IMG/VR virus record: IMGVR_UViG_3300021131_000008
Coordinates: 1 to 54,769 of that record
Source of the DNA: a virus
Taxonomy: Duplodnaviria; Caudoviricetes
Length of the DNA stretch: 54,769 bases
Reading direction: 5' to 3' (one strand)
Shown: in pieces, positions 1 through 15,961 of the stretch
How the letters are laid out: the number at the start of each line of letters is the position of its first letter
How positions within the stretch are numbered: position 1 is the first letter of the stretch
The notes under the pieces: model-generated
Database searches by the model: none
What the model was told of the DNA's origin: nothing
What the model saw: the letters and a program-made list of their open reading frames with translations, nothing else
Position numbers and translations under genes: made by a program

Positions 1-99
1 GATAGTTTTTCTTCTCTATTGCTTCGTAAATACGATCAACAACTTCTACTTCTTGAACTGGTATTGGTATTGTTAATTTTTTAGTCATTAGGATCTACC
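1..99. repeat. 99-bp terminal direct repeat, copy 1 (circular assembly overlap)
   Basis: Bases 1-99 are identical to 54671-54769. The repeat covers the 5' end of the Cas4-like gene, whose RBS continues at 93-100. Confidence 0.97.
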
Positions 100-111
100 T
101 ATAATAAAGAC

Positions 112-157
112 GGGCTACTCGCTGCAGCATATCTACCTCCGCCATCCGCTTTCGCCC
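112..157 (-). ncRNA. Candidate structured RNA element between the SSB and exonuclease genes
   Basis: Minus-strand GGGC-GAAA-GC...GC-G-AGUA-GCCC: a closing stem plus GAA opposite AGUA (bulged-G/loop E-like), followed by U-rich GUCUUUAUUAU. Confidence 0.45.
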
Positions 158-165
158 TAAACTGG

Positions 166-669
166 TTAATCCCAAGGATTCTTTTTCTTGGACGAGGGTT
201 TCACATCTTTATCGGTCGGGATGTCATTCGTAAGATCATCAATCCCAATGGACTTAGTTTCAGCTTTGGGCTCTGTTCCGCTTACAACGTAACCTACGAT
301 ACGGTTTTTATCAGAGTACCCATTGCTGCCTTTTTCAATATCAACAGAGGCTTTGAACTTACGATCTATCAAATCATCAAAACTGTTAGCATTAGGTTTT
401 CCGCAAGCTCGTGCCCATGAGGCCACTTGTTCACGACCGATACGCTGAGCGGCTTCGCTTTTGTTGTGAATATTGAAGTTGTTCCAGATCTTACGACCCG
501 TGTGTTGACCTGATAAAACTTCAAACGTAGCAGAGATCATTTCTCCACCTGACTTAGTGGCTTTAACCTCAGCGTCTACACAAGACAATACGTACTCGCC
601 TTTAGGTAACGGGGAGTGATCACGTACATCACCAGCATAGTCGGTTAAATCGAATCCAAATTTAGACAT
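166..669 (-). CDS. DUF669-like single-stranded DNA-binding protein
   Basis: PLPKGEY, G.HTGRKIWNNFN and an acidic tail ending KKNPWD. Adjacent to the AAA ATPase, with an AAAGGAAAT RBS. Confidence 0.8.
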   Translation of the reverse strand: MSKFGFDLTDYAGDVRDHSPLPKGEYVLSCVDAEVKATKSGGEMISATFEVLSGQHTGRKIWNNFNIHNKSEAAQRIGREQVASWARACGKPNANSFDDLIDRKFKASVDIEKGSNGYSDKNRIVGYVVSGTEPKAETKSIGIDDLTNDIPTDKDVKPSSKKKNPWD

Positions 670-680
670 AATAATTTCCT

Positions 681-1421
681 TTATTTAGTTATAACGGGTA
701 TATGTTTTACAATCTCTTCCATGCTCATATCGAAAGAATCAGGGCAAGCGTAACGATTTTTTGCAATATATGCAGGGTTCTCGACTACATGAAGTAACCG
801 TTCACCCGTCGTTATACCACGATTTACAGTGTTGTTAAAACCTACGTCAGACTTCTTGACGATCACTTTGAAACCTGCATAAGCAATCACATCACACCAC
901 TCCTGCAACAGCGCGTTGCAACGGTTTGGCAGTTTTGGCGAAAATCGATCGTACGGCTCAGTCAACGGATTTTCATAACGAACCACATTGGCATGCGCTA
1001 ATAGAACGATATTCATACTTCTTTTACGACGTAGCGCGTCTAACCCTTGGAGGATCTCGCGGAATGACTCAGCTACAAATACTTGACCCTTACCGTAACC
1101 CAAGTCTTTGGCGTCGTGAGAGGATTCAACATCCTTCACAATCAGCGGCTCAACCAACCAATCCACTGAGTCGAGAACGAGCGTTTTGAAGTCATGCTCT
1201 TCTTTCAATAGAGTTTTGATAGATTCAACCACGTCATTTACTTCGGTAGCTTGAGGAAACGAAGTAACGTCCAAAGAGTCCAATCCGTTCTCGGTATTGA
1301 TAAAAATAGGATCAGGGAATTTTGCCGCTATCGTAGACTTACCGATACCGTGGTTACCGTAAATACAGATTCTTGGGGGAAGTTGTTGCTTGCCCTTTAT
1401 CAGAGCGTCAGTAAAACTCAT
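681..1421 (-). CDS. AAA_24 / Sak4-like phage NTP-binding protein
   Basis: Walker A GNHGIGKS, Walker B LVLDSVD, GYGKG, LLAH, EWCD and AKNR motifs. Confidence 0.85.
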   Translation of the reverse strand: MSFTDALIKGKQQLPPRICIYGNHGIGKSTIAAKFPDPIFINTENGLDSLDVTSFPQATEVNDVVESIKTLLKEEHDFKTLVLDSVDWLVEPLIVKDVESSHDAKDLGYGKGQVFVAESFREILQGLDALRRKRSMNIVLLAHANVVRYENPLTEPYDRFSPKLPNRCNALLQEWCDVIAYAGFKVIVKKSDVGFNNTVNRGITTGERLLHVVENPAYIAKNRYACPDSFDMSMEEIVKHIPVITK

Positions 1422-1434
1422 ATTATTTCCTTTA

Positions 1435-1794
1435 TTAAAAGTTTAAAACTATATTTTCATACTGAAAAGCCCGAGCGTCGAATTGTAGAACATTCAACTC
1501 GATACCAGGACTACTTTGCGCTATAACGCCAACGCAAATTGCTGACAGCTTAGGGTCTCCAATAATGCAGAGGTAGTCACCTTCGCGGAAATCTTTTAAA
1601 ACTTCTCTAGCATGTTCAACTAAATCGACCTTTTTGAGATCAATGTCAGTGAACACGTGTTCAATCGATCCGAATCGTGCCGCATCCTTGATAGTTTTAC
1701 GTGTAGAATTATCAACGATCCAGACTACGGTATATGCGTCTTCCATAGATGGTTCCTTTTCTAAATCGCCAAAGTCGAGATTAAGTTGTTTCAT
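1435..1794 (-). CDS. Hypothetical protein in the replication module
   Basis: 119-aa ORF with a strong RBS, overlapping the polymerase stop. Contains DYLCIIGDP. Function unknown. Confidence 0.7.
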   Translation of the reverse strand: MKQLNLDFGDLEKEPSMEDAYTVVWIVDNSTRKTIKDAARFGSIEHVFTDIDLKKVDLVEHAREVLKDFREGDYLCIIGDPKLSAICVGVIAQSSPGIELNVLQFDARAFQYENIVLNF

Positions 1795-3565
1795 TATTTC
1801 CTTTATAAAACCGGCTTGCGCCGATATCCGTTATTGTTTTAATTATAGCCTGAAAATACCAGTTGAAGTCAAGATCTTTGGGAATATTTTTAGGTAGGGT
1901 CATGCAAGCCTTGGCCCCATCGGTTTTTGCAACTTTATTTCCATTGGTTGCATAAGTGATTGGAGGGAGTTTTTCAGTGGTTTGATACCACCGTACCACT
2001 CTGCCTAAATGCTCATCTCCCTGAACTCCACCTCCTGTGACGTTACGTACGCTGATAAAGTCATTGATGTCTTGGCTCTTCAGCGTCTCCTCAAACGGAA
2101 CGCCACTCGCTAACCAGTTGGCTACAGCTTTAGAAACAACTGGTGCAGTAGGATTCTTGCTCAACGTTGGTGGACTATAAATACCTTTGATTTTTACGCT
2201 TCTATCTCCTTTCACCGCGTAATAATTATTCACATCTTTGAGCGCCACACAGCGGTAAAATGTAGCTTCAAAGATAAAACCAGTTCGCTCAGAAAACTCT
2301 TTTATAATCTGCTCAACTATAGCCAACTCAGATTTACGATAACGTAACATAATGCCGTCAGTGTTAGCCGATATGACTGTAATGCTTTCACTTTCAAGAG
2401 CTTCAATCAAGTTGAGCAAGTTCAGCTGACCAGTCAAAACGATATTGATCATAACGTCTGGCGAATAGAGTGGAGAAAACTTGTTAGCAGTTTTTCCAAA
2501 CGTTCCGTTCAATGCAATCCGCAATGAGTCCGCTATGACCATATTTTTAATTCGTTTACCTTCTAAACGGCGATAAAATAAAGTCCGGTACTCTTCCAAA
2601 AACTTTTCGCCTGTGTTTACAGGTATCAAGTTGCAGTTCAACATAATAGCGGGGTAGTAGGATGCTACGTCGTAGTCAGTTACATAATACTCATCGTCGG
2701 CAACGTAACAAACTTTACGGTCGTGCTGAGAGTGCAAACCGCCTACTCCCATTTGATAAATACCCGCGTTTATATTAACTAGATCGTCTTTCAAGAAGCT
2801 CGGCAGTTCAACATGACCCGTTGTAGGGCGAACATAAAACTCGTGCGCTGTGATACGTTCGGCTATCGCTTTCAACGCGGGTGTTTTGAATTTTATGAAG
2901 TCAGGTAGTTTATATTGAACAGACGCAGGTATCGAAGGTGCTTTACGTTTTAAGTTCAAACGTTTTACGAACATCTGCTCAGCCACCTGAGAGTCTGATC
3001 GACTTCTAGCATCGAACTTATATTCTCTACTGATTTCAAGGCGTAACTGCAATTGCCCCTGAAGTCGATTATAAAGTTCAGCGGTGGTATCAAGATCATT
3101 GAAACAGTATTTCAATACGGTTTGTTTTTGGTCGTCTTCAATCATCGCGTCATAGTGAAAAGGCAGATCTTGAATGACCGGCATATTCATACGAGCACCA
3201 TAAGTTTTTAAACTCACGAAACTCGGCGCTACTTCAATCAAATCAATGTGATCGACTTTCGGCATAGTGAACCCGTACTTTCTCTCTGCTTCCCACGGCA
3301 TCAAATTATTTCTGATAATTTCATCGCCTAACTGTTTTGTTTCAAGAAACGTTTTTCCAGAAACAAAATAAGCTATTACTGGCATATCATATTTATTACC
3401 GTTGAAACTGATAAACGTATTGTTTGATTTGAAAAGATCTTTTATTTGCGCGCGAGCGTCATCTTCATCTCCCCAGATATGAAAGTACGTTTTTGTGTCA
3501 AGAATCAATCCGCAAAATAGGAATAGATTCTTGAACACTTCCGTATCGAATACTATCGTTTTCAT
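1781..3565 (-). CDS. Family B-type DNA polymerase with N-terminal 3'-5' exonuclease
   Basis: Exo motifs FDTE, FNGNKYD and YCFND. Polymerase motifs DYDVASYYP, RIALNGTFGK and SANTDG. Confidence 0.92.
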   Translation of the reverse strand: MKTIVFDTEVFKNLFLFCGLILDTKTYFHIWGDEDDARAQIKDLFKSNNTFISFNGNKYDMPVIAYFVSGKTFLETKQLGDEIIRNNLMPWEAERKYGFTMPKVDHIDLIEVAPSFVSLKTYGARMNMPVIQDLPFHYDAMIEDDQKQTVLKYCFNDLDTTAELYNRLQGQLQLRLEISREYKFDARSRSDSQVAEQMFVKRLNLKRKAPSIPASVQYKLPDFIKFKTPALKAIAERITAHEFYVRPTTGHVELPSFLKDDLVNINAGIYQMGVGGLHSQHDRKVCYVADDEYYVTDYDVASYYPAIMLNCNLIPVNTGEKFLEEYRTLFYRRLEGKRIKNMVIADSLRIALNGTFGKTANKFSPLYSPDVMINIVLTGQLNLLNLIEALESESITVISANTDGIMLRYRKSELAIVEQIIKEFSERTGFIFEATFYRCVALKDVNNYYAVKGDRSVKIKGIYSPPTLSKNPTAPVVSKAVANWLASGVPFEETLKSQDINDFISVRNVTGGGVQGDEHLGRVVRWYQTTEKLPPITYATNGNKVAKTDGAKACMTLPKNIPKDLDFNWYFQAIIKTITDIGASRFYKGNNETT

Positions 3566-3816
3566 CTGTCCTGATTCACGTAAGCTGAAGTGGGTTCAGA
3601 ACCGTCATCGGGATTTTCATTAACCACTTCAATATACTTCTCTAAAAAATGCTGAGCTTTTTTCAAATCAACTGTTCCGTTCTTCTTTTTCCATCGCGTC
3701 ACATACTTCGTGATTTGAGCTTGAAAATAGTCAAGATCGTTAGCCACCACGTAGTCCCAGTGCTGTATCTCAGACTGGTAATGTTTACCGCCTACTTGCT
3801 TATCATTTGCTGACAT
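3562..3816 (-). CDS. DUF3310 protein (T7 gp1.7 nucleotide kinase-related / SaV-like)
   Basis: QVGGKHY...KYVTRWKKKNG..DLKKA.HFL signature. Start refined to ATG 3816 behind an AAGGAG RBS. Confidence 0.85.
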   Translation of the reverse strand: MSANDKQVGGKHYQSEIQHWDYVVANDLDYFQAQITKYVTRWKKKNGTVDLKKAQHFLEKYIEVVNENPDDGSEPTSAYVNQDR

Positions 3817-4783
3817 TTTCTCTCCTTTCAATCCATTCGAATACTGCCGCTTTCCAATCTTCCGCTTTTATCATTTCAGCATATTTATATCCGCTTCCTT
3901 TTTTATTTTTACGAACATGAGACACCATGGCCATTGGGTAGGCCACTTCTTTGAAAAACTTGTGTGTGTACTTTGTTTCATCATTGAACGGATCTTTACA
4001 AAACCGATCGCAATCATGCAAAAAGCTAGCCCAACCTTCTTCAAATAATGGATAAGGTTTCAACCCCAATATCGCGTAGTAGTCGTAAGTGCTACTCGAT
4101 GGCGGCTGCATCATATCTTTGCTCGCGTCATACAGATCTGCGTACAAATGAAGATTATTTGAGATCGTATAATAGGTTCCGATGGGGATTTTGAGTGCGA
4201 TGGCGACAAATTCTTGTAGAATTGTAAAGTGTACCGCATTTGCACCTGCATAACCCCACCAGAAGTCGTTTGAACGATTGTTCACCATTAGATCTAAACA
4301 ACCGTTTTTAATTGAGAAAATCAACTGTGTATTACAAGCACGATCTTTTGTATCGATAACCAAATCATTTGCATCCCAGAGCTGTATAACCGCTTGACGA
4401 GAGTCAGGATTATTAGTCAAATGCGCGATCAACATTACCAATTGATCTACACCAAACTGTTGGCGCATGCGGTAACCATAGGCCGCGTTGAAAACACGCC
4501 CATCATCGCTGTACGCTCCTATCCGAGAGTTGAACTGACTAACAAAAGCTAAATCGTTTCTTCCGGCTAGTATCCACAAACTTTCCATTAAATGAAAAAT
4601 AGGATTAGCATCGCGCTGTGCATAAAAAAGAACTCTTTCTGTAGGATTAAATACTTTAGTTAATACTGGCTCTGGCATAACCCAAGCCTCGCCATTGCGG
4701 GTACTTGTTTTCTTAGCCGATACTTTGAATCTCCAAAGTGCATCTTCGAAAAGCGTATTTATATTTCTAGCTGAAATTTCCAT
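3803..4783 (-). CDS. Thymidylate synthase-fold dUMP hydroxymethylase
   Basis: SRQAVIQLWD, catalytic ACN, NRSNDFWWGYAGAN (Asn at the dUMP-specificity position) and NNLHLY. Clustered with hypermodification genes. Confidence 0.85.
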   Translation of the reverse strand: MEISARNINTLFEDALWRFKVSAKKTSTRNGEAWVMPEPVLTKVFNPTERVLFYAQRDANPIFHLMESLWILAGRNDLAFVSQFNSRIGAYSDDGRVFNAAYGYRMRQQFGVDQLVMLIAHLTNNPDSRQAVIQLWDANDLVIDTKDRACNTQLIFSIKNGCLDLMVNNRSNDFWWGYAGANAVHFTILQEFVAIALKIPIGTYYTISNNLHLYADLYDASKDMMQPPSSSTYDYYAILGLKPYPLFEEGWASFLHDCDRFCKDPFNDETKYTHKFFKEVAYPMAMVSHVRKNKKGSGYKYAEMIKAEDWKAAVFEWIERRENVSK

Positions 4784-5643
4784 TAAAATGCCTTTTCTGA
4801 TTTATAAAGTTGTCTAGGAGCACCTTGCGTCAAATACGCACGCATATATTTATCATATTCGCACATAACATTTTGAACGTCATGAAGTGTTATATCTTTT
4901 AAATCTGCATTTGACCCTATTAACGCATTGCGTATGTCTAATAACTCGCTATTGAATTTCTCTTGTGTAATTTTATCCTTCAAATATCGATAGTGCAACC
5001 GATTGAGCCCTCTTATACTTCCTGGCCCTATCGGCGCCCAAGTAAATAAATCAGTAGCCTCATCAAGTTGATCTTTTATATACGACAAGTCAGCAGCCAC
5101 TTGGCCAGCTATAAATGTTTGTATACCAAATGACGTAGCTAGCGCGGTTGTAACATTTTCAATTGACTTGCTTTCAACTTGCTTTCTTATCTCGTCTTTT
5201 ATCTCGATGGTCGGCATTATTATATAATTACACAAGTTATACGCTTTTGTGTTACCTTTCATTCGAGTCGGATAAACTATATATGCACTTGAATACGTTT
5301 TTTGTTTCAATTGTTCAAGATCTTTCATCGCATTAAGAAACAGCTTCGCATCAAACTCTTCTACTGTATGCGGTATTGCGTTATATTCCATTAATTTTAT
5401 AAGCGTTGGCGGCCAGTTTATCAAACGAGCTATTAGCGCTCTGAACCAAACATCGCCGGTTGTACATTTGTAATAATTATCAAGTAACCACTTTGATACT
5501 CGATCATGCTTTCTACGTACATTACAAAATCGATACTTCGCAAATATGGGGTCGTTAGTCAACGACAACGCACCACGTTCTTTTCTCAATCTTATTGATT
5601 CACGTTCATTGACTATACTAATTAGCACCTCATAAAATATCAT
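4783..5643 (-). CDS. aGPT-Pplase1 / 5-hmdU DNA kinase helical-domain protein (HhH glycosylase-like fold)
   Basis: YRFCNVRRKHDRVS, FIAGQVAADL, GPGSIRGL and DVQNVMCEYDKY.R motifs. Start refined to ATG 5643 behind AGGGGTG. Confidence 0.85.
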   Translation of the reverse strand: MIFYEVLISIVNERESIRLRKERGALSLTNDPIFAKYRFCNVRRKHDRVSKWLLDNYYKCTTGDVWFRALIARLINWPPTLIKLMEYNAIPHTVEEFDAKLFLNAMKDLEQLKQKTYSSAYIVYPTRMKGNTKAYNLCNYIIMPTIEIKDEIRKQVESKSIENVTTALATSFGIQTFIAGQVAADLSYIKDQLDEATDLFTWAPIGPGSIRGLNRLHYRYLKDKITQEKFNSELLDIRNALIGSNADLKDITLHDVQNVMCEYDKYMRAYLTQGAPRQLYKSEKAF

Positions 5644-6220
5644 TTTCACCCCTTTTAAAAATATCAAGCGTTTCATTGAATGCGTCCATATAATCAACAG
5701 TTAGTACTTTTACGCCTCCCATTGCATGAAGATTTTTGCAAGCAGCAAAAGTCGACTTATGCGCGCTAATTGTATTCTGAGGATTAAATGGACGATCATC
5801 TCCACGCTCTTTTCTACGTGCTAGGACGCGCTCTAAGCAAAGATCCAAAGGTGTGTCAAGGTACGCAGCAACATACGCACCAGTAGGTTTCAACATCTGA
5901 GTGGTTATGGCGTTTGGCCCGACCTTTGAAATCAATAATCCTTCAAGAAGAACATGGCCTTTAGGATGCGCGGCTAGCGCACGATCAGCTATCTCTTCTT
6001 GCGTACTGATACCATCTGTTCCTCCGCAAGTGTTGGCGTAAGACCCTATCACATAGAGCTTTTTCGCTAACCCTTCGGATGATAAATCAACTTCATACCC
6101 CCAATGTTTTTTACCATTCGGATCGGGCAGAGTTACAGTTGGATAATCAGTAAGAAACTTACGTGCTACTGTAGTCTTGCCACTTCCACTAGTTCCTCTG
6201 AGCGACAATATTATATTCAT
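5630..6220 (-). CDS. P-loop 5-hydroxymethyl-dU DNA kinase (5-HMUDK)-like
   Basis: LRGTSGSGKTT, GSY..TCGGTD, LLEGLL and LDTPLDLCLERV..RR. Start 6220 has a GGAG RBS and an ATGA overlap. Confidence 0.82.
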   Translation of the reverse strand: MNIILSLRGTSGSGKTTVARKFLTDYPTVTLPDPNGKKHWGYEVDLSSEGLAKKLYVIGSYANTCGGTDGISTQEEIADRALAAHPKGHVLLEGLLISKVGPNAITTQMLKPTGAYVAAYLDTPLDLCLERVLARRKERGDDRPFNPQNTISAHKSTFAACKNLHAMGGVKVLTVDYMDAFNETLDIFKRGENDIL

Positions 6221-6429
6221 GAAGTTTTCTCCCATAAGATAACTTTCTCTAATGCTTGATAACGAAGTACTTGTAATTTCACTTTATCCATCGCTTTTTC
6301 AAGTTTGATTTTTGATGGCACTAACCAATCAGGAAAAAACGAGCTAACCATGAGCTCTCCTGCAGTAATCAATTTACCATTGTTATCCCGCTTTGCAGGT
6401 GGCGGTTTCTTGCCTATTATTAATCTCAT
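6217..6429 (-). CDS. Hypothetical protein
   Basis: ATGA overlaps at both ends within the operon. Confidence 0.6.
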   Translation of the reverse strand: MRLIIGKKPPPAKRDNNGKLITAGELMVSSFFPDWLVPSKIKLEKAMDKVKLQVLRYQALEKVILWEKTS

Positions 6430-6521
6430 TCTTCTCTCATCCAATTAATAAAATCAAACATCATATAAAACGCCATCCCACATGCGATTCCCTGCACGAA
6501 AATCCTAGCACCGTCCGTCAT
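6426..6521 (-). CDS. 31-aa small hydrophobic protein (not in the ORF track)
   Basis: AGGAGG RBS, translation MTDGARIFVQGIACGMAFYMMFDFINWMREE, and ATGA overlap with the next gene. Confidence 0.55.
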   Translation of the reverse strand: MTDGARIFVQGIACGMAFYMMFDFINWMREE

Positions 6522-6702
6522 TGTCATCCTCCTTTAACTGTGGCGGTATGGAAAAACGCTCTGGAAACGTCTTAATATACTCACCAACAGCGTCAGCCAT
6601 TGAACCAGCTTCACTTGATGCGCCAACTTTCATCACACCTTCACGCGTTGTTAGCCACCCCGCAAAATCATAGATGTCAGTTTCGGCAAGTCGATACGTC
6701 AT
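6505..6702 (-). CDS. Hypothetical protein
   Basis: ATGA overlap, GGGAG RBS, YDFAGWLTTR. Confidence 0.65.
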   Translation of the reverse strand: MTYRLAETDIYDFAGWLTTREGVMKVGASSEAGSMADAVGEYIKTFPERFSIPPQLKEDDNDGRC

Positions 6703-7064
6703 TTGTTTTTCTCCCGTAATTTTTCTTGAATTGCAAAGTAAACATCAGTAACTGTAAAACTGCTCCAAGTTTTCATGCTGTCGCAAATCATTGTCAATTC
6801 ATCTTGCGTCAGCCCAACCCATGTGCGTTGTGGTGGGTCTTTGTACAGCGGGATTCCAGCAGACCCATCCGTTACTTCTCGCCAAATGTTGTCAGTAAAC
6901 TTGGCAAATTTACCTACAGGCTCTTGCTCTGACTGCTTTAAGGATTCTTTAATCGCGGTAATGGCGGCATACATTTCTGGTTCAAAGTCAGCCAAAATCC
7001 AACCATCTTTATTGACGCGTTCAATAAAATTAAGCGCAATCTTCAATGCTTTATCTTTACTCAT
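6699..7064 (-). CDS. Hypothetical protein with a WVGLT module
   Basis: EQEPV...PLY..PPQRTWVGLTQDE...LREKN, translationally coupled. Confidence 0.7.
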   Translation of the reverse strand: MSKDKALKIALNFIERVNKDGWILADFEPEMYAAITAIKESLKQSEQEPVGKFAKFTDNIWREVTDGSAGIPLYKDPPQRTWVGLTQDELTMICDSMKTWSSFTVTDVYFAIQEKLREKNK

Positions 7065-7285
7065 TTGTTTTTCTCCCGCAATGCCGATTCAATGGCATCG
7101 ACAAAGTTACGCGCATATTGAGGCACACGCCCATATTGCCCATAGTTAAGCATCTCCATGATTTCCTCATCCGTCAGCCCTACCCATGTGCGCTGTGGCA
7201 GTTCTGTAACTAAAGATTCAATCCCGCCATTGAGTTCAACGGCAACCCTTATGGTTTTGTCTGAAAATGAAACTCTGATGGTCAT
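7061..7285 (-). CDS. Hypothetical protein with a WVGLT module
   Basis: PQRTWVGLTDEE...LREKN, with ATGA overlaps. Confidence 0.7.
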   Translation of the reverse strand: MTIRVSFSDKTIRVAVELNGGIESLVTELPQRTWVGLTDEEIMEMLNYGQYGRVPQYARNFVDAIESALREKNK

Positions 7286-7551
7286 GCTTGTCCCCTTGCT
7301 CGGATAGAAACGCCAATCTGATATGCCGCACTTGATTGAATGGGCGCAGTCAAAAGTGCATTTGTATTGAATAATTGACTATCCGCAATCCTTGCACACG
7401 CCTCACGCTCGGCTTCTACTGCTTTGCGTATCTCTGCTTCTAACCCTGCCTTTGACCACAGCGACATTGGGCCAATTGCGGCTGTTACTTTTTGTATTGT
7501 GCATCGCCCACCTGCAAGTTCGCGCAATAAAATTTCTTCATCTTTAGTCAC
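7282..7551 (-). CDS. Hypothetical protein with an EREAC...IRARG module
   Basis: EAEREACARIAD...IRARGQ, with a GTGA overlap. Confidence 0.65.
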   Translation of the reverse strand: MTKDEEILLRELAGGRCTIQKVTAAIGPMSLWSKAGLEAEIRKAVEAEREACARIADSQLFNTNALLTAPIQSSAAYQIGVSIRARGQA

Positions 7552-7814
7552 GATTGTCCCCTTGCTCGGATGGTTGCGGCAAATTCAGTTCGTGTTCCGT
7601 ATCCAACGTATTCCTCACACACTTTTGCACACGCCTCACGCTCATCAGCACGAGCGGCAAGACAGCAGGGTTTGTTGGGTTGTATCTCTCGTGCATCCAT
7701 CAGATTTTGCAATCTTGCAAATTTTTGTTTCCATGCGTCTTCTATTGTTTTTTGCATAGATTCTTCTAGTGATTTTGCGTAACGTTTGCCTATTTTTTCA
7801 TATTCATCTTCCAT
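7548..7814 (-). CDS. Hypothetical protein with an EREAC...IRARG module
   Basis: ADEREACAKVCE...IRARGQ and an AAGGA RBS. Confidence 0.65.
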   Translation of the reverse strand: MEDEYEKIGKRYAKSLEESMQKTIEDAWKQKFARLQNLMDAREIQPNKPCCLAARADEREACAKVCEEYVGYGTRTEFAATIRARGQS

Positions 7815-8118
7815 TGTTTTTTTCCTTTAACTTAGCTTCAAGAGCTACCATCAAATCTTCATCGTCGTGAGATGGGTCACCCCAACCCACCACATCCCGC
7901 CAAAGTTTATTGCGCTCCTCATCTGTCAGCCCTACCCATTCGCATGGTGGGTGTGTGTAAAGGGGTTCCCAATTACCTTCGGTTGGTCTGCCAGCAATTT
8001 TGATCGAAAGCCTACCGTCCGGTAGTTTAGAGAACCACGCCACAGGGTCTTTACTCATATCTCTTCTCCTATTTTTACACGTGCATCTTCTTCCTTGGCC
8101 GCAGTCTTGTGTACACAT
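7804..8118 (-). CDS. Hypothetical protein with a WVGLT module
   Basis: PVAW...PLYTHPP.EWVGLTDEE...LKEKN. Possible internal start at MSKDP (8058, AGGAG RBS). Confidence 0.65.
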   Translation of the reverse strand: MCTQDCGQGRRCTCKNRRRDMSKDPVAWFSKLPDGRLSIKIAGRPTEGNWEPLYTHPPCEWVGLTDEERNKLWRDVVGWGDPSHDDEDLMVALEAKLKEKNNGR

Positions 8119-8300
8119 AAATCCTCCGCTTTATGTCTAGCTATAATATTGCGTTGCATAAGATTTTTATTAAATATTGTTTTTATGCAATGCTTGCATT
8201 TCCACCTTTTTATCTTTCCCGACCAGTAAAATTTCCCCTTGATCTTTATTTGATGTGTTTGGCAGTTTGTGCAAAACTTCGTCTCTAGATCGCCATCCAT
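8055..8300 (-). CDS. Putative zinc-ribbon protein
   Basis: KFCTNC...RWKCKHC with ATG 8300 behind GGAG. The stop overlaps the ATG at 8058. Confidence 0.6.
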   Translation of the reverse strand: MDGDLETKFCTNCQTHQIKIKGKFYWSGKIKRWKCKHCIKTIFNKNLMQRNIIARHKAEDLCVHKTAAKEEDARVKIGEEI

Positions 8301-8376
8301 ACTTTCTCCATATTTTAGTAACGTCTGTTTGCGCCGCATTGACGTAAACGAAATTTTTATTAAGTATTGAAATCAT
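8170..8376 (-). CDS. Hypothetical protein (FVY..AAQTDV..IWRKYGW motif)
   Basis: ATGA overlap with the AADT stop and a GGGGGA RBS. Overlaps the zinc-ribbon ORF in another frame. Confidence 0.5.
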   Translation of the reverse strand: MISILNKNFVYVNAAQTDVTKIWRKYGWRSRDEVLHKLPNTSNKDQGEILLVGKDKKVEMQALHKNNI

Positions 8377-9383
8377 ATTTCCCCCAGTATATATTTAGCA
8401 CGAAACGGTACTCCGGTTTCGGCAAATAAGCTCGCTTTGATTTTTCTCGGCGTTACTGTTTTTTCACATTCTTCGCGTAACCAGTCAGGCAACCAGCTAG
8501 CACGAATATCTTTAAATACGTTGGTCAGTTCATTCATGCCGCGGTTGTCGTACCATTTTATGCGGTCCCATCCCATATCGGCGTAAACGCCAGGATACCG
8601 CCGTGAGAAAAATCCATTCTTGAATTGACACAAACAAGACTCTAACGTAAACTTGTTCAAATGTTGGTGCCCGTTATAATCTAATTTGAATTCATTCAAA
8701 AATACTTCCGCTTTCTCTTCCAGTTGATTTGTTAATATGCTGAAGTCAATGTAATTCCCATCGTGAGAGTTAGGCTGTCGTTTGTCCCAGACATGATCGT
8801 CAAGACCCAACAAGAAAAACATGCCATTACGATGTGACCGTGATCCGTTCAAGTCATTAAAAACAAGAGTCTCACAATCCGCTCCATAACCGTTTAAATA
8901 TACGTATTCAAGATACGAGAAACAGGACAGCCGTCCAAAACTGTAAATATTCTCAGCGACTTCCCAAAGATCTTTATAACTTTTATCTATTGAAAGCAAC
9001 TTGGTTTGTGAGCCAGCTGCTTTAACTAATTCAGCATAAGAGTAAAGACCTTTGATAGTGTGTTTTTTCTGTTTATTTCGATCAGTATCAAAACTAAGAA
9101 GCGGCCACTCTTTGTCAAACCATGCTTGAAAACTAACCCACTCTTTTATGCTCTGTGGAATAGCAGGCATAAACTTAAAAATACGCAAACTAGTGATGGG
9201 GTTTTGAGTATGTCCATTGATCGCTGCAAACCAGAGCATCTCCTCATCAGTCCAGTTGAAATGCGATTTAAGTTTGGGCATATAAAGATAAACTAGCCCA
9301 GGATGAACTTTTAAAGCTAAATTCAACTTGTATAACTGAGAAAAATAGCTACGGCGGTTCTCTTTCAATCGATAGTCAGTCAT
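8373..9383 (-). CDS. Amino acid:DNA transferase (AADT, aGPT-Pplase2 family)
   Basis: FDTDR, FGRLSCFSYLE, SHRNG, TLESCLCQFK and RYPGVYAD motifs. Start refined to ATG 9383 behind GAGGT. Confidence 0.82.
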   Translation of the reverse strand: MTDYRLKENRRSYFSQLYKLNLALKVHPGLVYLYMPKLKSHFNWTDEEMLWFAAINGHTQNPITSLRIFKFMPAIPQSIKEWVSFQAWFDKEWPLLSFDTDRNKQKKHTIKGLYSYAELVKAAGSQTKLLSIDKSYKDLWEVAENIYSFGRLSCFSYLEYVYLNGYGADCETLVFNDLNGSRSHRNGMFFLLGLDDHVWDKRQPNSHDGNYIDFSILTNQLEEKAEVFLNEFKLDYNGHQHLNKFTLESCLCQFKNGFFSRRYPGVYADMGWDRIKWYDNRGMNELTNVFKDIRASWLPDWLREECEKTVTPRKIKASLFAETGVPFRAKYILGEI

Positions 9384-9472
9384 ACGTACCTCGCAAATAA
9401 AGGTAATCCAAAAACAACTAGCCAAAAGACCATTAACCACGTCACTGCCCACAATGTAATTTCACGTATCAT
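9380..9472 (-). CDS. 30-aa single-pass membrane peptide (not in the ORF track)
   Basis: MIREITLWAVTWLMVFWLVVFGLPLFARYV with an AGGAG RBS and ATGA overlaps with both neighbours. Confidence 0.6.
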   Translation of the reverse strand: MIREITLWAVTWLMVFWLVVFGLPLFARYV

Positions 9473-10206
9473 TTGTCAACTCTCCTCAATCCATTTTTAG
9501 CTGAACCAGCAGGCAAGCGCAGAAACTCGGCTTGATCAGGCGCGGTTGGCTCTAATCGATAATAAAAACTGTTAGCATGATATGCGCACCCCGTAATTGA
9601 ATACTTGTAACGCTCCCAAAACCTTCGACTCATTGAGTAAATATAACTCTTTCGGTCTGAGTCAATACGAGAGTCGATCTTATTGTAGTTTTTCCAACCC
9701 ACATGATATCGACAAGAAGACCCATCAGTCATTACAATGTACTTGGGCTGCTTGGCGGTCATGCGACGCAGTTCTTGTTCCCAACGGCCTTTTAAGTAAC
9801 GCCCCAGAGAGAAGAGCGGGAAGTCGCAAAGATACAAATCAGCGTACTCTGTGCCCAATACCTTTGTTGCGTCAGCATTTTGAATCTTTACGGGGTACTT
9901 GTTTAGCGAGTGTTCAAGTTGCTGTAAACAAGTCTCATCGATCTCGCTTATCACATGCACCTTCGGTTTGATCAACTCTTGCGTAGCGGTAGCAAATATG
10001 CCCACACCGCCAAAAGGTTCACAAACCAACATATTTAACGGCATGTTGCGCATAAGCCATGCTACGCACTGCACGTTTTTACCAGTTTCGGTAGGGCGTT
10101 TATTGAGATAGTCGTAATACGACACGCCACCTCCTTCCATTGCGCGGCCCTCTCCAGGAGTTAATTCAAACGGAAACTTATTTAGTATCAGCCACTGACT
10201 TGACAT
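9469..10206 (-). CDS. SAM-dependent methyltransferase-fold protein, atypical
   Basis: Motif I VCEPFGGVG, motif II VISEID, motif III NADA, and LYLCDFPL at the motif IV position instead of DPPY. Confidence 0.7.
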   Translation of the reverse strand: MSSQWLILNKFPFELTPGEGRAMEGGGVSYYDYLNKRPTETGKNVQCVAWLMRNMPLNMLVCEPFGGVGIFATATQELIKPKVHVISEIDETCLQQLEHSLNKYPVKIQNADATKVLGTEYADLYLCDFPLFSLGRYLKGRWEQELRRMTAKQPKYIVMTDGSSCRYHVGWKNYNKIDSRIDSDRKSYIYSMSRRFWERYKYSITGCAYHANSFYYRLEPTAPDQAEFLRLPAGSAKNGLRRVDK

Positions 10207-10720
10207 ATAAACCTTTCTTCGCTAAATATTCGTTACGGTAGTCGATAAACCACCAAGGAGTAGCACCTTCATCTTTGAACCAAATCATCTTCATAGTATC
10301 CGCTTTACTCGCGTAGTACTTCTTATACGCTTCAACAAAATCAGACCCACGGAACTCTTCGGGCATGGCCTGCGGTGGTTGTACCCATTTACAGTTTGTT
10401 AACGCAGGTGGTGCATGACGCAGCTCTTTCTCAAACACCGCTTCACAAGCGTGCGTCTTTCCAAATCGCTTGCGAAACTCGCAGGCTAAATGAATCGCCA
10501 AATCAGACACAAACTTGTAATGCAGTTTTGACTCACGAACCCAGACCGCGCAGGGATGATTTTTATGAGTAGGCTTGTAAGTAACCGCGTCACCATTACC
10601 CAGCACATGATGAGCCGTAGCTAATAACTGGCAAGACTCAAGCAGCATTTTGCCAACGTGAATGTCAGCGTGATAGCGTGCTGAAGCAATTGCGGTATGA
10701 TGGAGAAAGAAGATGTTCAT
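10178..10720 (-). CDS. Pyrimidine-dimer DNA glycosylase (DenV/Pyr_excise)-like protein
   Basis: MNIFFL...H.D.HV.KM.LE..QLL.TAH, YKPTHKNHPCAVWVRES, PPQAMP and AYKKYY. Confidence 0.8.
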   Translation of the reverse strand: MNIFFLHHTAIASARYHADIHVGKMLLESCQLLATAHHVLGNGDAVTYKPTHKNHPCAVWVRESKLHYKFVSDLAIHLACEFRKRFGKTHACEAVFEKELRHAPPALTNCKWVQPPQAMPEEFRGSDFVEAYKKYYASKADTMKMIWFKDEGATPWWFIDYRNEYLAKKGLYVKSVADTK

Positions 10721-10761
10721 ACATTATTACCTTTATTGAGTTATTGAATTATCGAGATTAA

Positions 10762-10796
10762 ATTATAGGGGAGGCCCAAACATAAAACAAGGACTT
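10762..10796 (-). promoter_or_regulatory. Sigma70-type promoter upstream of the DenV-like/MTase/AADT operon
   Basis: AAGTCC-TTGTTT-17 nt-TATAAT on the minus strand. Confidence 0.75.
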
Positions 10797-10809
10797 CCCC
10801 TAGAAAATA

Positions 10810-11556
10810 TTACAAGTAATTCTCGGCTAACTCCCAGAGCTTCAAGTTGGTTTTAACAGTGCTGCCCATCGCCTTGATACCTAGCGTGCGGATGTTGCGC
10901 CCATTCGGTGACAACCCTCTAACCCCACCACGTATCAAATTCTCCTGCACCCGATTAAAGACGTTCCAGAGCGTCAAATCTTTGTCTTCATCGCGACGCA
11001 CACTCAACAACTCGTCTTCAGTGACGTTTACCGAACGAATCTCTTTGGCTTGAGTCGCAAAGCTACGAGCGTCAAGTGGGGTCAGCACTTTGGACATGAA
11101 CAGTTCTATTCTACGAGCCGACTCTCTGGCTGCTTCAATGACTTTGGTAGCTTCACCTACGACCCGTGTCTCCGTGACGTCTACGTGACGTGTACGGGAA
11201 GAATAACTAGAAGCTGACTTGACAATCAAACCGTTCGAGCAGACCATACGGAACAGCGCAGCTTCCATGCGTAACGAAGTTGATCCATCGTGCGAGTTGA
11301 TGACTAATATCTCAGGGATGGTGCCATTGATTGCGGACATGTGGCTCTCGTGACGCATACGCAAAAAGTGTTTAACAACACGAGGATCACGTATGCGCGG
11401 TTTCAATGTGCTAGCCGACGTGACTAAAAATCCTTGCTCGCGCATGATCTCAATGACATCTGAAGTTTTGATGATTTGATATTTCTCAGAGAGTTTCTCG
11501 TATTTGATTGCGTCAGTAGCGCAAGCGGGAAGTTGTATTTTGTTTAGTTCGACCAT
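10810..11556 (-). CDS. DUF932 family protein
   Basis: NSHDGSTS, FRMVCSNGLI and LWNVFNRVQENLIRGG. Confidence 0.88.
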   Translation of the reverse strand: MVELNKIQLPACATDAIKYEKLSEKYQIIKTSDVIEIMREQGFLVTSASTLKPRIRDPRVVKHFLRMRHESHMSAINGTIPEILVINSHDGSTSLRMEAALFRMVCSNGLIVKSASSYSSRTRHVDVTETRVVGEATKVIEAARESARRIELFMSKVLTPLDARSFATQAKEIRSVNVTEDELLSVRRDEDKDLTLWNVFNRVQENLIRGGVRGLSPNGRNIRTLGIKAMGSTVKTNLKLWELAENYL

Positions 11557-11567
11557 TTTAATTCTCC

Positions 11568-11870
11568 TTAGATTTTAGCTGCGAAGTGTTGTTCAAAAAC
11601 ATCGGTAACATTCATATATGCATTGAAGCTATGGCCGCCCACGTGCCAACTGTACTCGCCCATCGGGGTTTCGCCTTCTTTCCAGTCATAAATACTGGCA
11701 ACGCTGTCGTCTTCAAACTTAAACGTCCACTCACAAGTGACTTTGCCGTCGATGTCAGCGTTAGGGCCAATCTCAGGCTGGCCAAATACTTCTACGAGCT
11801 GAGCGTAAGTGGCTCTGAATTCGCCCTTGAGAGAAGTTCTATTAGTGTCTGCGGTTTTAGTGAAGTTCAT
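11568..11870 (-). CDS. Hypothetical early protein
   Basis: TSLKG...TY..LV..FG.P, KV..EW, IYDWK and WHVGG pattern. Has its own promoter and RBS. Confidence 0.75.
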   Translation of the reverse strand: MNFTKTADTNRTSLKGEFRATYAQLVEVFGQPEIGPNADIDGKVTCEWTFKFEDDSVASIYDWKEGETPMGEYSWHVGGHSFNAYMNVTDVFEQHFAAKI

Positions 11871-11915
11871 GTTATTTCCTTTATTCGGTTATTGAAGTAA
11901 TTTGCTACAGTTCAA

Positions 11916-11950
11916 ACTATAAGCCAGTTGATTGTATTTGACAAGGACTT
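11916..11950 (-). promoter_or_regulatory. Sigma70-type early promoter
   Basis: AAGTCC-TTGTCA-17 nt-TATAGT with an AT-rich upstream element. Confidence 0.8.
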
Positions 11951-11963
11951 TTTAAAATAAATC

Positions 11964-12128
11964 TTAAGATTTATAATTTTTAATGTACTCTTGAGCTTCT
12001 TTACGAGTTTTGCATATCTCGCACAAGAAACTACGACCATCGTCTAAAATGGTCCAGACTTGCCATCGTGGTGCGTCATATGAATTTTGAAATCCAGATA
12101 AAACGTCTATTATTTTAAAAGTTTGCAT
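11964..12128 (-). CDS. 54-aa hypothetical early protein (not in the ORF track)
   Basis: MQTFKIIDVLSGFQNSYDAPRWQVWTILDDGRSFLCEICKTRKEAQEYIKNYKS with an AGAG RBS. Fills the gap in the operon. Confidence 0.55.
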   Translation of the reverse strand: MQTFKIIDVLSGFQNSYDAPRWQVWTILDDGRSFLCEICKTRKEAQEYIKNYKS

Positions 12129-12137
12129 TTTTATCTC

Positions 12138-12347
12138 TTATAGTAATTTTAAAGAAGTGTTAAGATTTGACCATTCGGCAAGAGAGACGATACGCACAGT
12201 GCCTTTGCTTACTGACTGTGTCCAGTGCTTTGCGATCACAAAGCGAACAGCTTGCAGTAAGGTTAAGGGTCTTGTTTTGTCCATCCATGTGTTGTTATAG
12301 TCATCGTGCATCACAACGATCCAGTTTTTTTGCCATTTGCTTTTCAT
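12138..12347 (-). CDS. Hypothetical early protein
   Basis: Start refined to ATG 12347 behind GGAG (MKSKWQKNW...). Confidence 0.65.
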   Translation of the reverse strand: MKSKWQKNWIVVMHDDYNNTWMDKTRPLTLLQAVRFVIAKHWTQSVSKGTVRIVSLAEWSNLNTSLKLL

Positions 12348-12362
12348 TTTTATCTCCAAGTG

Positions 12363-12378
12363 AGGGGCCGAAGCCCCT
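12363..12378 (-). other. cUUCGg tetraloop hairpin (stabiliser or terminator)
   Basis: AGGGGC-TTCG-GCCCCT on the minus strand. The U-rich run follows on the plus strand only. Confidence 0.55.
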
Positions 12379-12382
12379 GTGT

Positions 12383-12598
12383 TTATTGTTTGACAAGCAT
12401 CCGCTTGCAACCATCGCAATCGCAAGGTACAACCGAGTGCTTGATGTCCGAACGCAACTCGCTCATTGAGTCGTATGCGTAGGTGTGACACAAGGACATC
12501 GGGTCATGCGTGAACTTCCAGCCACTGGGCAAATTTAAGATGAAAACATCTGGTTCGTCAGTGTCTACATCACGGGCCACATTGAGTTTGTATTTCAT
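12383..12598 (-). CDS. Hypothetical early protein with C-terminal CxCxxC
   Basis: Start refined to ATG 12598 behind AGGGG (MKYKLNV...PCDCDGC). Confidence 0.65.
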   Translation of the reverse strand: MKYKLNVARDVDTDEPDVFILNLPSGWKFTHDPMSLCHTYAYDSMSELRSDIKHSVVPCDCDGCKRMLVKQ

Positions 12599-12611
12599 GG
12601 TGGTCCCCTGA

Positions 12612-12902
12612 TTAGCGTGCGAACAAACGGATAGAAGCTGACACCTTGCAGATCTTTTTGTAAGGCTTGAGGTCATTTTCGGATAATGCGAGGTCTTCAA
12701 CGATCTGTTTGTAATCGATGGACACACGCTCGGTAGGTGCAGAGACGGTCGCTTTGAAGAGCGAGCCCTCGTAAGAGCCTTTGCCTGCGCTTTTGAAAAC
12801 GTTCTTGATAACTTCTGCTTGAGCTTCTAAGTCGGCGATCTGAGCAAGCAAGTGGCCTAAGCGGTCGAGTTCGGTAATTTGAAATTCTAGGGAGTTTTGC
12901 AT
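12612..12902 (-). CDS. Hypothetical early protein
   Basis: Has its own promoter and an AAAGGAAAT RBS. DRLG.L.AQIA.L...YEGSLFKATVS. Confidence 0.75.
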   Translation of the reverse strand: MQNSLEFQITELDRLGHLLAQIADLEAQAEVIKNVFKSAGKGSYEGSLFKATVSAPTERVSIDYKQIVEDLALSENDLKPYKKICKVSASIRLFAR

Positions 12903-12950
12903 TTTATTTCCTTTATTCAGTTATTTAGGTTATTTGGTAGAACAGGTACA

Positions 12951-12985
12951 ACTATAAGCCAGTCCTCATCGTTTGACAAGGACTT
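12951..12985 (-). promoter_or_regulatory. Sigma70-type early promoter
   Basis: AAGTCC-TTGTCA-17 nt-TATAGT. Confidence 0.8.
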
Positions 12986-12999
12986 TCTTAAAATATATT

Positions 13000-13257
13000 T
13001 TAGAAACCGTTTGCAGCTTCGTAACCGCTCTTTTTATCTAAGTAGACACCGCATTCGTCTTGAATGTCCACCCACTGAGAATAGTTCAATGAGTCATAAT
13101 CGATCTCGCCATCTTCACCGATCACTTTGCACTGTACAGCCCACTGGGGTTGATCACTGGTGAAGGTCTCAACTTCGTAATCCGTGATCTCGATCGATAC
13201 TTCTCTACCGTCGTCGAGTACCATGTTGAATTCATCATATTTGTAAGGGTTTGCCAT
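13000..13257 (-). CDS. Acidic hypothetical early protein
   Basis: First gene of the minus arm, Asp/Glu-rich, with an AAAGGAAAT RBS. Confidence 0.75.
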   Translation of the reverse strand: MANPYKYDEFNMVLDDGREVSIEITDYEVETFTSDQPQWAVQCKVIGEDGEIDYDSLNYSQWVDIQDECGVYLDKKSGYEAANGF

Positions 13258-13304
13258 TTCGTTATTTCCTTTATTTAAGTTATCAAACTGGAACTTCTGA
13301 GTGA

Positions 13305-13339
13305 ATTATGGCTCATGTGTTTCAGTTTGACAAGGACTT
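13305..13339 (-). promoter_or_regulatory. Sigma70-type early promoter
   Basis: AAGTCC-TTGTCA-17 nt-CATAAT with an AT-rich upstream element. Confidence 0.75.
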
Positions 13340-13362
13340 TTTTATAAATATTTTAAAAAAGA

Positions 13363-13391
13363 TTGTTTTCCGCTCTTTTATAAGCCAAAAT
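13363..13391 (+). promoter_or_regulatory. Putative rightward promoter for the primase-helicase leader
   Basis: TTGTTT-17 nt-CAAAAT. The predicted start near 13398 coincides with the 5' end of the leader stem. Confidence 0.45.
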
Positions 13392-13397
13392 TAGAGG

Positions 13398-13511
13398 GTC
13401 GTCGCTCTAGCCCCATTCGTTCTACCCACTCATCCTCCCAAGGAGCCGACGACATCTGCGCGATTGCTAGTCAATTGCTTGAGTGGGTAGACCTAATGGG
13501 GTTAGCTTTTT
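13398..13511 (+). ncRNA. Structured leader RNA / attenuator upstream of the primase-helicase
   Basis: Stalk 13398-13408/13442-13453. Segments 13407-13417 and 13421-13432 are complementary to 13495-13505 and 13480-13491, followed by a U5 tract. Confidence 0.6.
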
Positions 13512-13538
13512 ATAAACTTTGGGCAGGATCACATAATA

Positions 13539-15590: not shown

Positions 15591-15600
15591 TTTTGATAAA

Positions 15601-15842
15601 AACCGATAGAAGAACCGAAGAGACCATTTATAATCAATGGGTTACGTTCTATCGGTTCTATCGGTTCTTTTATCGGAACTTTTGGAACCGAGAGAAACCA
15701 AGTTCAACCTTTACCTCTTCATTTGGGGGGGTTTTTGACCCCCCAAAAGAGGTCAAGTTGGGGGTGTTTCGGTTCTATCGGTTCTTCGGTTTTTTGCTTA
15801 AGGGAAAACCGAAGAAAGAACCGATAGAAGTTCCGATAGAAA
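15601..15842. repeat. Iteron-like repeat array with a central inverted repeat (putative replication origin)
   Basis: About ten exact or variant CCGATAGAA/TTCTATCGG units in both orientations around an ACCTCTT..TTTGGGGGG/CCCCCCAAA-AAGAGGT hairpin, directly after the primase-helicase. Confidence 0.65.
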
Positions 15843-15887
15843 TGAGGTGTTTGGGAAGCGTGATTTTGAAGCGGTTTTTCATGCGGT

Positions 15888-15916
15888 TTGCGAAAACAGG
15901 AAAAATCAGGCATAAT
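15888..15916 (+). promoter_or_regulatory. Putative promoter of the terminase/morphogenesis operon
   Basis: TTGCGA-17 nt-CATAAT, 45 nt before terS. Confidence 0.5.
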
Positions 15917-15961
15917 GCGGCAAAAGATGAAAATCTTTCAACACTTTAGGATCTTATAAAG

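Follow-up and report, generated by a model that had tools for sequence, protein, structure and literature searches.

The stretch of DNA described here, 54,769 bases of an uncultured tailed phage (Duplodnaviria; Caudoviricetes; IMG/VR record IMGVR_UViG_3300021131_000008), is referred to throughout as the window. Its minus strand carries a run of genes related to those with which certain phages hypermodify thymidine in their DNA: an amino-acid:DNA transferase (AADT), a P-loop kinase, a protein of aGPT-Pplase clade 1 (aGPT-Pplase1) and a thymidylate synthase (TS)-fold enzyme, lying on the same strand as, and upstream of, a DNA polymerase. The initial annotation had recognised these four genes from the sequence, and matches to Pfam and PHROGs confirm each of them (Table 1). 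Judged by its gene content, the window is probably the complete genome of a freshwater phage with a short tail, in which the known core for thymidine hypermodification forms an operon with the DNA polymerase as its last gene.

The record is that of a whole virus, classed as having direct terminal repeats with an estimated completeness of 100%, and the terminal 99 bases at both ends of the genome are identical. Minus-strand genes, from 166 to ~13,257 and from 53,410 to 54,758, make up a replication and nucleotide-metabolism module, which contains a DUF669 single-strand-binding-like protein, a Sak4-like AAA_24 ATPase, a Pam3_gp32-like protein, the DNA polymerase, a Cas4-type exonuclease and a RuvC-like resolvase. 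Between 13.5 and 53 kb the genes are on the plus strand and include those for the primase/helicase, large terminase, portal, GroES-like protein, capsid protein and fibres, and the lysis and tail genes.

The chemistry of such systems is described by Lee et al. 2021 (PMC8989533) for M6, ViI, PaMx11, PhiW-14 and SP10, where it is established. A dUMP hydroxymethylase leads to 5-hydroxymethyldeoxyuridine (5-hmdU) in the DNA, a 5-hmdU DNA kinase (5-HMUDK) phosphorylates this base to 5-PmdU, and an AADT then attaches an amino acid or amine. The set put forward in the initial annotation corresponds to this published core in all but aGPT-Pplase1, which falls outside the demonstrated chemistry: M6 gp54 and gp51 were enough in lysate reactions without gp55, the aGPT-Pplase1 of that phage (Lee et al. 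2021, PMC8989533).

The enzymes of the operon and their conservation

The TS homologue groups with the CMP hydroxymethylase MilA rather than with ThyA. MilA is its best solved relative (E 1.1e-27, compared with ~1e-10 for true thymidylate synthases), and the TS homologue falls far short of the NCBI ThyA equivalog cut-offs, with scores of 27-66 bits against cut-offs of 108-427 (e.g. 54.9 vs 327). In the HMMER alignment the Cys of its RACNTQ motif (Cys150) falls on the catalytic Cys of thymidylate synthase from E. coli (C146), and the Asn of its GANAV motif (Asn182) on that of the E. coli PFNIA motif (N177), where MilA has Asp. Asn or Asp at this pyrimidine-specificity position distinguishes uracil from cytosine, and the Asn reported in the initial annotation at the dUMP-specificity position is borne out by the alignment. 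Both Cys150 and Asn182 are invariant in the aligned phage homologues (7/7). Among the E. coli TS chains of the PDB the highest score is with 1kzj_A, presumably the W80G mutant, the engineered Gly of which pairs with a Gly of the query. In the same column MilA has Ala, and the M6, PaMx11 and Pam3 homologues also lack Trp. With the Trp80 position opened, the exocyclic methylene would be accessible to a nucleophile, which would fit hydroxymethylation. The protein is 42% identical to M6 gp58 over 98% of its length and 41% identical to PaMx11 gp51, and it is read as a putative dUMP hydroxymethylase that would produce 5-hmdUMP, not dTMP.

The kinase is 36% identical to PaMx11 gp49 over 186 aa (E 7e-23) and 29% identical to M6 gp54 (E 1.3e-12), both of which are listed as assayed 5-hmdU DNA kinases in Table 1 of Lee et al. 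2021 (PMC8989533). The aGPT-Pplase1, the likely true start of which is the ATG at 5643, matches PF18723 over profile positions 4-275 of 281. It is 32% identical to Pam3 gp50, 28% to M6 gp55 and 26% to its PaMx11 counterpart, and it occupies the same position as M6 gp55, PaMx11 gp50 and Pam3 gp50.

The AADT is of the long form and has alternative starts at a GTG (9452) or an ATG (9383), the latter being the end given in the initial annotation. Its identity is 33% with homologues from Mycobacterium phages and 28% with ViI-like AADTs (over 91% of its length), but just 15-18% with M6 gp51, PaMx11 gp46 and Pam3 gp47; a PDB sequence search with it returned no match. M6 gp51 and ViI gp247 both require a conserved Cys and a Glu close to it (Lee et al. 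2021, PMC8989533), and the structure paper of PaMx11 gp46 (PMC11472151) names Glu243, Thr244, Cys247, Asp175, Phe173 and Arg94. These gp46 residues align with E271, S272, C275, D200, F198 and R125 of the window AADT, respectively. The Phe matched by F198 is the wedge Phe of the solved gp46, and E271 and C275 align with M6 gp51 residues as well.

Adjacent genes downstream overlap, namely aGPT-Pplase1 and TS, TS and the DUF3310 gene, and the DUF3310 gene end and the polymerase start. The DUF3310 protein is homologous to M6 gp61 (55%, 62 aa) and to PaMx11 gp53, and the location of its gene, between those for the TS homologue and the polymerase, is conserved. The polymerase is 37-39% identical, over 97% of its length, to those of RcSpartan, PaMx25 and 9g-like phages. 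In M6, PaMx11 and Pam3 the order is AADT, tailoring genes, kinase, aGPT-Pplase1, TS, small genes and polymerase, which is the order in the window.

Table 1. Features of the modification operon and its immediate neighbours, from the upstream end on the minus strand
Feature	Coordinates	Strand	Evidence
SAM-methyltransferase-fold protein	9469-10206	-	ESM Atlas, AlphaFold and Foldseek
AADT, aGPT-Pplase clade 2	8373-9452	-	PF18724 ADDT E 9.7e-14, 52.1 bits, cut-off 26.2
Island, nine small open reading frames (65-121 aa)	6217-8376	-	no family
P-loop kinase	5630-6235	-	AAA_33 E 1.8e-6; Walker A GTSGSGKTT
aGPT-Pplase clade 1	4783-5697	-	PF18723 HMUDK_hel E 1e-37, 130.5 bits, cut-off 25
TS-fold enzyme	3803-4783	-	PF00303 E 7.9e-19; phrog_5131 'thymidylate synthase' E 5e-101
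DUF3310 small protein	3562-3831	-	PF11753 E 6.6e-7
DNA polymerase	1781-3565	-	phrog_1252 E 3.6e-168; last gene of the co-directional block

The arrangement is not confined to the window. A scan of IMG/VR with the window AADT as query gave 69 loci at 49-68% identity, and in 64 of these the AADT, kinase, aGPT-Pplase1 and TS genes lie in identical order, usually followed by DUF3310 (in 62/69), the polymerase (in 61/69), Pam3_gp32, AAA_24, DUF669, the exonuclease and the resolvase. Two of the remaining five loci end just past the AADT, one has the AADT only, and two (L046 and L047) contain another type of cluster. The terminase is ~63% identical in the nine related loci that extend that far, and the window therefore belongs to one widespread phage group and is no singleton. 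Sequenced phages are more distant: megablast of window positions 1-20000 against 50,697 phage records gave a single 39-base match (7614-7652, 97%) to Phage DSL-LC05, so that there is no closely related sequenced phage among them.

A more distant member of the group (L060, 8163-15163) has a fuller set, with a PALP-like pyridoxal phosphate (PLP) enzyme, a dCTP-deaminase-like protein, AADT, kinase, aGPT-Pplase1 and TS, together with a YdcK beta-solenoid protein and a YfbR-like 5'-deoxynucleotidase. Accessory genes therefore vary inside one phage group. A DUF932 protein (10810-11556, minus strand) and the phrog_624 'DNA binding protein' (10178-10720, minus strand) are located upstream of the modification genes in the window and are kept in 14-15 related loci.

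From the observed homology, catalytic residues and gene order we infer the enzymatic steps, the donor substrate and the composition of the virion DNA as follows. The TS-fold enzyme would convert dUMP to 5-hmdUMP instead of dTMP, and the phage polymerase would incorporate 5-hmdU into DNA. The kinase, in view of its homology and its linkage to the AADT in 64/69 loci, would act as the 5-HMUDK. Cys275 of the AADT, aided by Glu271, would attack C6, the phosphate would be expelled, and an amino acid or amine would be joined to the exocyclic methylene. No PLP decarboxylase, radical-SAM, flavin or acetyltransferase enzyme is found in the window, and the adduct would thus be either final or altered by the methyltransferase-fold protein encoded next to the AADT.

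Virion type and exchange of modules

The initial annotation had proposed a short-tail architecture without tape measure or sheath. This is backed by the structural genes. A 589-residue protein (42657-44426, plus strand) has a phmmer match to gp16 of phage VP1 (PDB 8zkk/8zkm, E 2e-11), which is listed among podophage nozzles (PMC13730344), and is 24% identical to HTVC023P gp72 (E 3.6e-13); a tail nozzle is a marker of phages with short tails. A 209-residue protein (40791-41420, plus strand) is the putative adaptor, with matches to PF24175 SU10_adaptor (E 1.1e-23) and PDB 7z47 (E 1.2e-4) and 25% identity to HTVC023P gp56 (E 8e-14). The major capsid protein (27893-28807, plus strand) is 86% identical to that of MW202545.1, 76% to that of Caulobacter phage RW and 42% to that of Pelagibacter phage HTVC023P. 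The last of these phages, which is described as resembling podoviruses by electron microscopy (bioRxiv 10.1101/2019.12.14.876532), has homologues of the terminase, portal, GroES-like protein, capsid protein, adaptor and nozzle. Among 33 proteins compared with PHROGs, none matched a tape-measure, tube or sheath family at E <= 1e-4. On these similarities the genome is very likely to be short-tailed, of the podovirus type.

If instead the genome were long-tailed, the nozzle and adaptor matches would be misleading and there would be no extension of the pathway to podoviruses. Two observations tell against a short tail: MW202545.1, the nearest GenBank relative, is labelled 'Siphoviridae sp.', and Table 1 of Ely et al. 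2024 credits the RW cluster with a 'tail tape measure protein'. In addition, when 11 structural proteins were rescanned at E <= 0.1, a 352-aa protein matched a major-tail PHROG (E 0.0057) and a 1069-aa protein a tape-measure PHROG (E 0.037). These weak matches are not significant, however, and PDB sequence searches with the 352-, 790- and 1069-aa structural proteins gave best E values of 0.02, 0.4 and 0.86, which are read as chance. No tape-measure gene that would correspond to the entry in Table 1 is annotated in the RW and RLK records as deposited. Also against a long tail are the match to a solved podophage nozzle, the SU10-type adaptor, and the portal, major capsid protein, GroES-like protein, adaptor and nozzle held in common with a phage of podovirus appearance. 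A long-tailed virion is therefore improbable.

The structural and replication modules of the window have different relatives. The TS homologue, aGPT-Pplase1 and AADT are all absent from the MW202545.1 and RW records, which have no replication gene in common with the window. The replication and modification block resembles those of M6, PaMx11 and Pam3-type phages in content and order, although the polymerase is of the RcSpartan/PaMx25/9g kind. The pathway thus moves with a replication module that recombines among virion modules, and exchange of this module is independent of the structural genes. The phages nearest to the window in structure are without the pathway.

Between the large terminase and the portal is a gene for a 1468-residue protein (17893-22299, plus strand) that is matched solely at residues 584-630, which resemble PcfJ (PF14284, E 2.7e-6); a 34% match to this protein is found in just 3 related loci. 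The head module contains a GroES/Cpn10-like co-chaperonin gene (25306-25731, plus strand), with conserved counterparts in HTVC023P, MW202545.1 and Caulobacter phage RW. The first ~95 residues of a 920-residue protein (35584-38346, plus strand) are 65% identical to an MW202545.1 protein annotated as endo-N-acetylneuraminidase and the remainder is unmatched. This is the usual pattern for a tailspike, in which the anchor is conserved and the receptor-binding part is swapped.

The split operon, accessory enzymes and a methyltransferase-fold neighbour

A number of observations weigh against a pathway that works as proposed. While PF00303, PF18723 and PF18724 were matched among the Pfam families expected for such a gene set, the kinase scores 19.1 bits against PF18748 (HMUDK_HMUD1) and misses the gathering cut-off of 27. 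The AADT is distant from the assayed glycine transferases (15-18%) and nearer to the ViI-like one (28%). The residues of the gp46 minor pocket, suggested as the site of the leaving phosphate (PMC11472151), are D24, Y47, E92, K261, D262 and E265, and these are unconserved or in gaps in the window AADT. The AADT is parted from the kinase by a 2.1-kb island, to which the initial annotation made no reference. No homologue of the HD 5'-deoxynucleotidase, dCMP/dCTP deaminase or MazG is found in the window. Parts of the genome are present in 17 sequencing-run rows from 7 studies, none with half or more of the sequence words and with no RNA run listed; all are assembled contigs, which carry no base-modification, expression or strand signal.

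The PF18748 score is not decisive, since the verified kinase PaMx11 gp49 is also below the cut-off at 18.1 bits, with M6 gp54 at 65.1 and Pam3 gp49 at 31. On these scores the model evidently under-covers the PaMx11-type branch.

The gap between AADT and kinase is 2138 nt in the window, whereas in 64 loci it ranges from -12 to 795 nt, with a median of 25.5. The nine island open reading frames match no PHROG and give just scattered sub-threshold Pfam matches at E <= 1 (best E 0.01), and none of the nine has a counterpart in any of the 69 related loci. In four freshwater metagenome runs the summed depth of contigs over the island is very high, and joints are numerous. We read the island as a mosaic of pieces common to many abundant lake phages.

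Enzymes of the HD nucleotidase, deaminase and MazG types are present among M6, PaMx11 and Pam3, and the HD nucleotidase is present in 23 related loci. Without them in the window, complete replacement of T is not assured. The window also contains no homologue of the PLP, radical-SAM, FAD or acetyltransferase enzymes of M6, PaMx11 and Pam3. A PLP-type enzyme is found 12-4162 nt upstream of the AADT in 29/69 related loci, yet a tblastn search at E <= 0.1 found neither a PLP enzyme nor an HD nucleotidase in the window.

The lack of dTTP-pool enzymes and the splitting of the operon would both be expected if the genes were present but the phage, with host dTTP competing, made only 5-hmdU, partly modified DNA, or nothing. 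Against this, all four open reading frames are intact with their catalytic residues kept, and the gene set persists in nature: contigs with 97-99% identity over the core genes occur in four metagenome runs, each from a different study (labelled lake water, aquatic, freshwater and 'metagenome'). Moreover, hypermodification covers only part of the thymidines in M6 and ViI, as reported for those phages. Such sparse or failed modification is quite improbable. It is highly improbable that the kinase is an ordinary nucleotide kinase and that the AADT-like and aGPT-Pplase1-like proteins are glycosylase-type repair or anti-defence proteins with no base hypermodified, a reading that the PF18748 miss might invite, given the reciprocal similarity of the kinase to assayed 5-HMUDKs, the equally sub-threshold score of gp49, the conserved catalytic Cys and Glu of the AADT and the strict linkage of the four genes in 64/69 loci. 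An operating thymidine-hypermodification operon remains the preferred reading, and the non-canonical T that it predicts bears on restriction evasion, on native long-read basecalling and on the metagenome assembly of such phages.

The gene immediately preceding the AADT on its upstream side, outside the region covered by the initial annotation, encodes a 245-residue protein for which neither Pfam nor NCBIfam gave a match. In the ESM Atlas this protein neighbours class I S-adenosylmethionine (SAM) methyltransferases (score 0.94). An AlphaFold model built with six sequences has a pLDDT of 75.5 and a pTM of 0.79, and the top Foldseek matches of the model in the PDB are Trm1, TYW2, PH1948, TrmM and RsmD (E 4.5e-8 to 1.4e-6, TM about 0.45-0.55). 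Residues E63, G67, G69, E88, D90, D112, A113, D128, F129 and P130 are invariant in 6/6 homologues. They fall in the blocks EPFGGVG, E88/D90, D112-A113 and DFP, which can be read as methyltransferase motifs I to IV. The predicted structure thus supports a class I SAM-methyltransferase fold.

A profile of this family finds the protein in 5 of the 52 loci with at least 800 nt upstream of the AADT, with a partial match at the cut end of a sixth locus (L013), and also finds Pam3 gp39 (E 3e-17) and homologues in L046 and L047. In these last two the homologue is flanked by the AADT and a PF18751 kinase, and the cluster also encodes a Tet_JBP dioxygenase. The methyltransferase-fold protein and the PLP enzyme occur together in no locus. 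Its recurrence beside AADTs in two types of cluster and this mutual exclusion suggest that the protein is a candidate tailoring enzyme. A free-standing DNA methyltransferase is the plain alternative. The main text of Lee et al. 2021 (PMC8989533) does not name methyltransferases among the co-associated tailoring enzymes, while a 2026 paper on phage T-dioxygenases (PMC13229309) includes O-methyltransferases and N6/N4 methyltransferases among the domains that co-occur with 5mYOX clusters.

Two further features of these loci were seen. The L046 and L047 clusters (e.g. L047 762-7759) adjoin a gene for subunit A of topoisomerase IV and open reading frames resembling NUMOD3 homing endonucleases, and L072 has a tandem pair of methyltransferase-fold homologues (517-1581 and 1563-2318) upstream of its AADT.

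The unusual features of the window copy are the absence of a PLP decarboxylase and of dTTP-pool enzymes, the methyltransferase-fold gene beside the AADT, and the island that splits the operon. Chief among them is that the methyltransferase-fold gene occupies the place of the decarboxylase found in many related loci. A tentative and on balance unlikely proposal is that in a subgroup the methyltransferase-fold protein replaces the PLP decarboxylase and methylates the amino-acid side chain attached by the AADT, giving an undescribed adduct that is undecarboxylated and N- or O-methylated, and that is made without the usual dTTP-depleting enzymes. The accessory pattern within one phage group, with the PLP enzyme, the methyltransferase-fold protein or neither, provides natural variants in which new thymidine adducts might be found.

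Relation to known systems

The characterised carriers of the pathway were said in the initial annotation to be myoviruses and siphoviruses. This agrees with Table 1 of Lee et al. 2018 (PMC5889632), which has Myoviridae and Siphoviridae carriers only, and the text of that paper has no mention of podoviruses. Lee et al. 2021 (PMC8989533) report 352 IMG/VR2 and 713 GOV2.0 metavirome contigs from 5-HMUDK queries, and these contigs (Figure 2 and supplements) may include members of the group described here. A literature search on thymidine hypermodification and podoviruses gave, by title and abstract, only Wittmers et al. 2022 (PMC9599517) on hypermodification genes in podovirus genomes. That paper describes TS and aGPT-Pplase1 as a DNA-hypermodification pair in HTVC023P-type Podoviridae; in its account of the pair the genes named are TS, aGPT-Pplase1, 5'-deoxynucleotidase and glucosyltransferase, with neither 5-HMUDK nor AADT among them.

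The suggestion in the initial annotation that the pathway extends to a different lineage therefore holds in part. The kinase and AADT in a genome of short-tailed type would be an addition, but TS and aGPT-Pplase1 in podoviruses were published in 2022, and the four-gene set is present in 64/69 IMG/VR loci. The window adds one more carrier to those of a known pathway, and half of the gene set had already been published for its lineage. Its likely significance is that the complete kinase and transferase chemistry, beyond the TS and aGPT-Pplase1 pair, travels in a widespread group of freshwater short-tailed phages.

The closest structural relatives are Caulobacter phage RW (proposed Riverwalkvirus) and MW202545.1, with 76% and 86% identity in the major capsid protein, 43% and 58% in the large terminase, and 47% and 57% in the portal, respectively, yet no modification gene is in common with the window. 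The HTVC023P-type pelagiphages have a related structural module at lower identity (major capsid protein 42%, portal 30%, adaptor 25%, nozzle 24%). Members of this type carry TS and aGPT-Pplase1 near the polymerase, as in the window (Wittmers et al. 2022, PMC9599517), whereas HTVC023P and 023Pt_psg01 have none of the four genes and a replication module unlike that of the window. They also differ in habitat, HTVC023P-type phages being marine and the window phage freshwater.

In the modification genes the likeness is to PaMx11 (gp46-gp55, 5-AcNmdU) and M6 (gp51-gp62, 5-NedU), siphoviruses of the Mesyanzhinovviridae, in which the gene order from AADT to polymerase is as in the window. PaMx11 has an FAD lyase and an acetyltransferase, and M6 has PLP and radical-SAM enzymes; all of these are absent from the window, as are an HD hydrolase and a dCMP deaminase. 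The AADT and polymerase types also differ, and the structural module of the window is of the short-tailed kind.

Salmonella phage ViI (Ackermannviridae) makes 5-NeOmdU with the serine:DNA transferase gp247 and the PLP decarboxylase gp226. Its type of AADT is nearer to that of the window (28% identity and a common C-terminal extension). The logic of ViI would need a PLP enzyme, such as the one upstream of the AADT in 29/69 related loci, and the window has none. ViI is a 158-kb myovirus with two kinases, while the window, at 54.8 kb, has one kinase and the genes of a short tail.

The metavirome clusters that combine TET/JBP, kinase and AADT (Lee et al. 2021, Figure 2, sequences 22-25) can be compared with the window through L046 and L047. 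The AADTs of these two loci are 57-60% identical to the window AADT and are followed by the methyltransferase-fold homologue, the PF18751 kinase and the Tet_JBP dioxygenase. In such clusters 5-hmU would arise by oxidation of T in the DNA, whereas the window, with no dioxygenase, would rely on its TS-fold hydroxymethylase.

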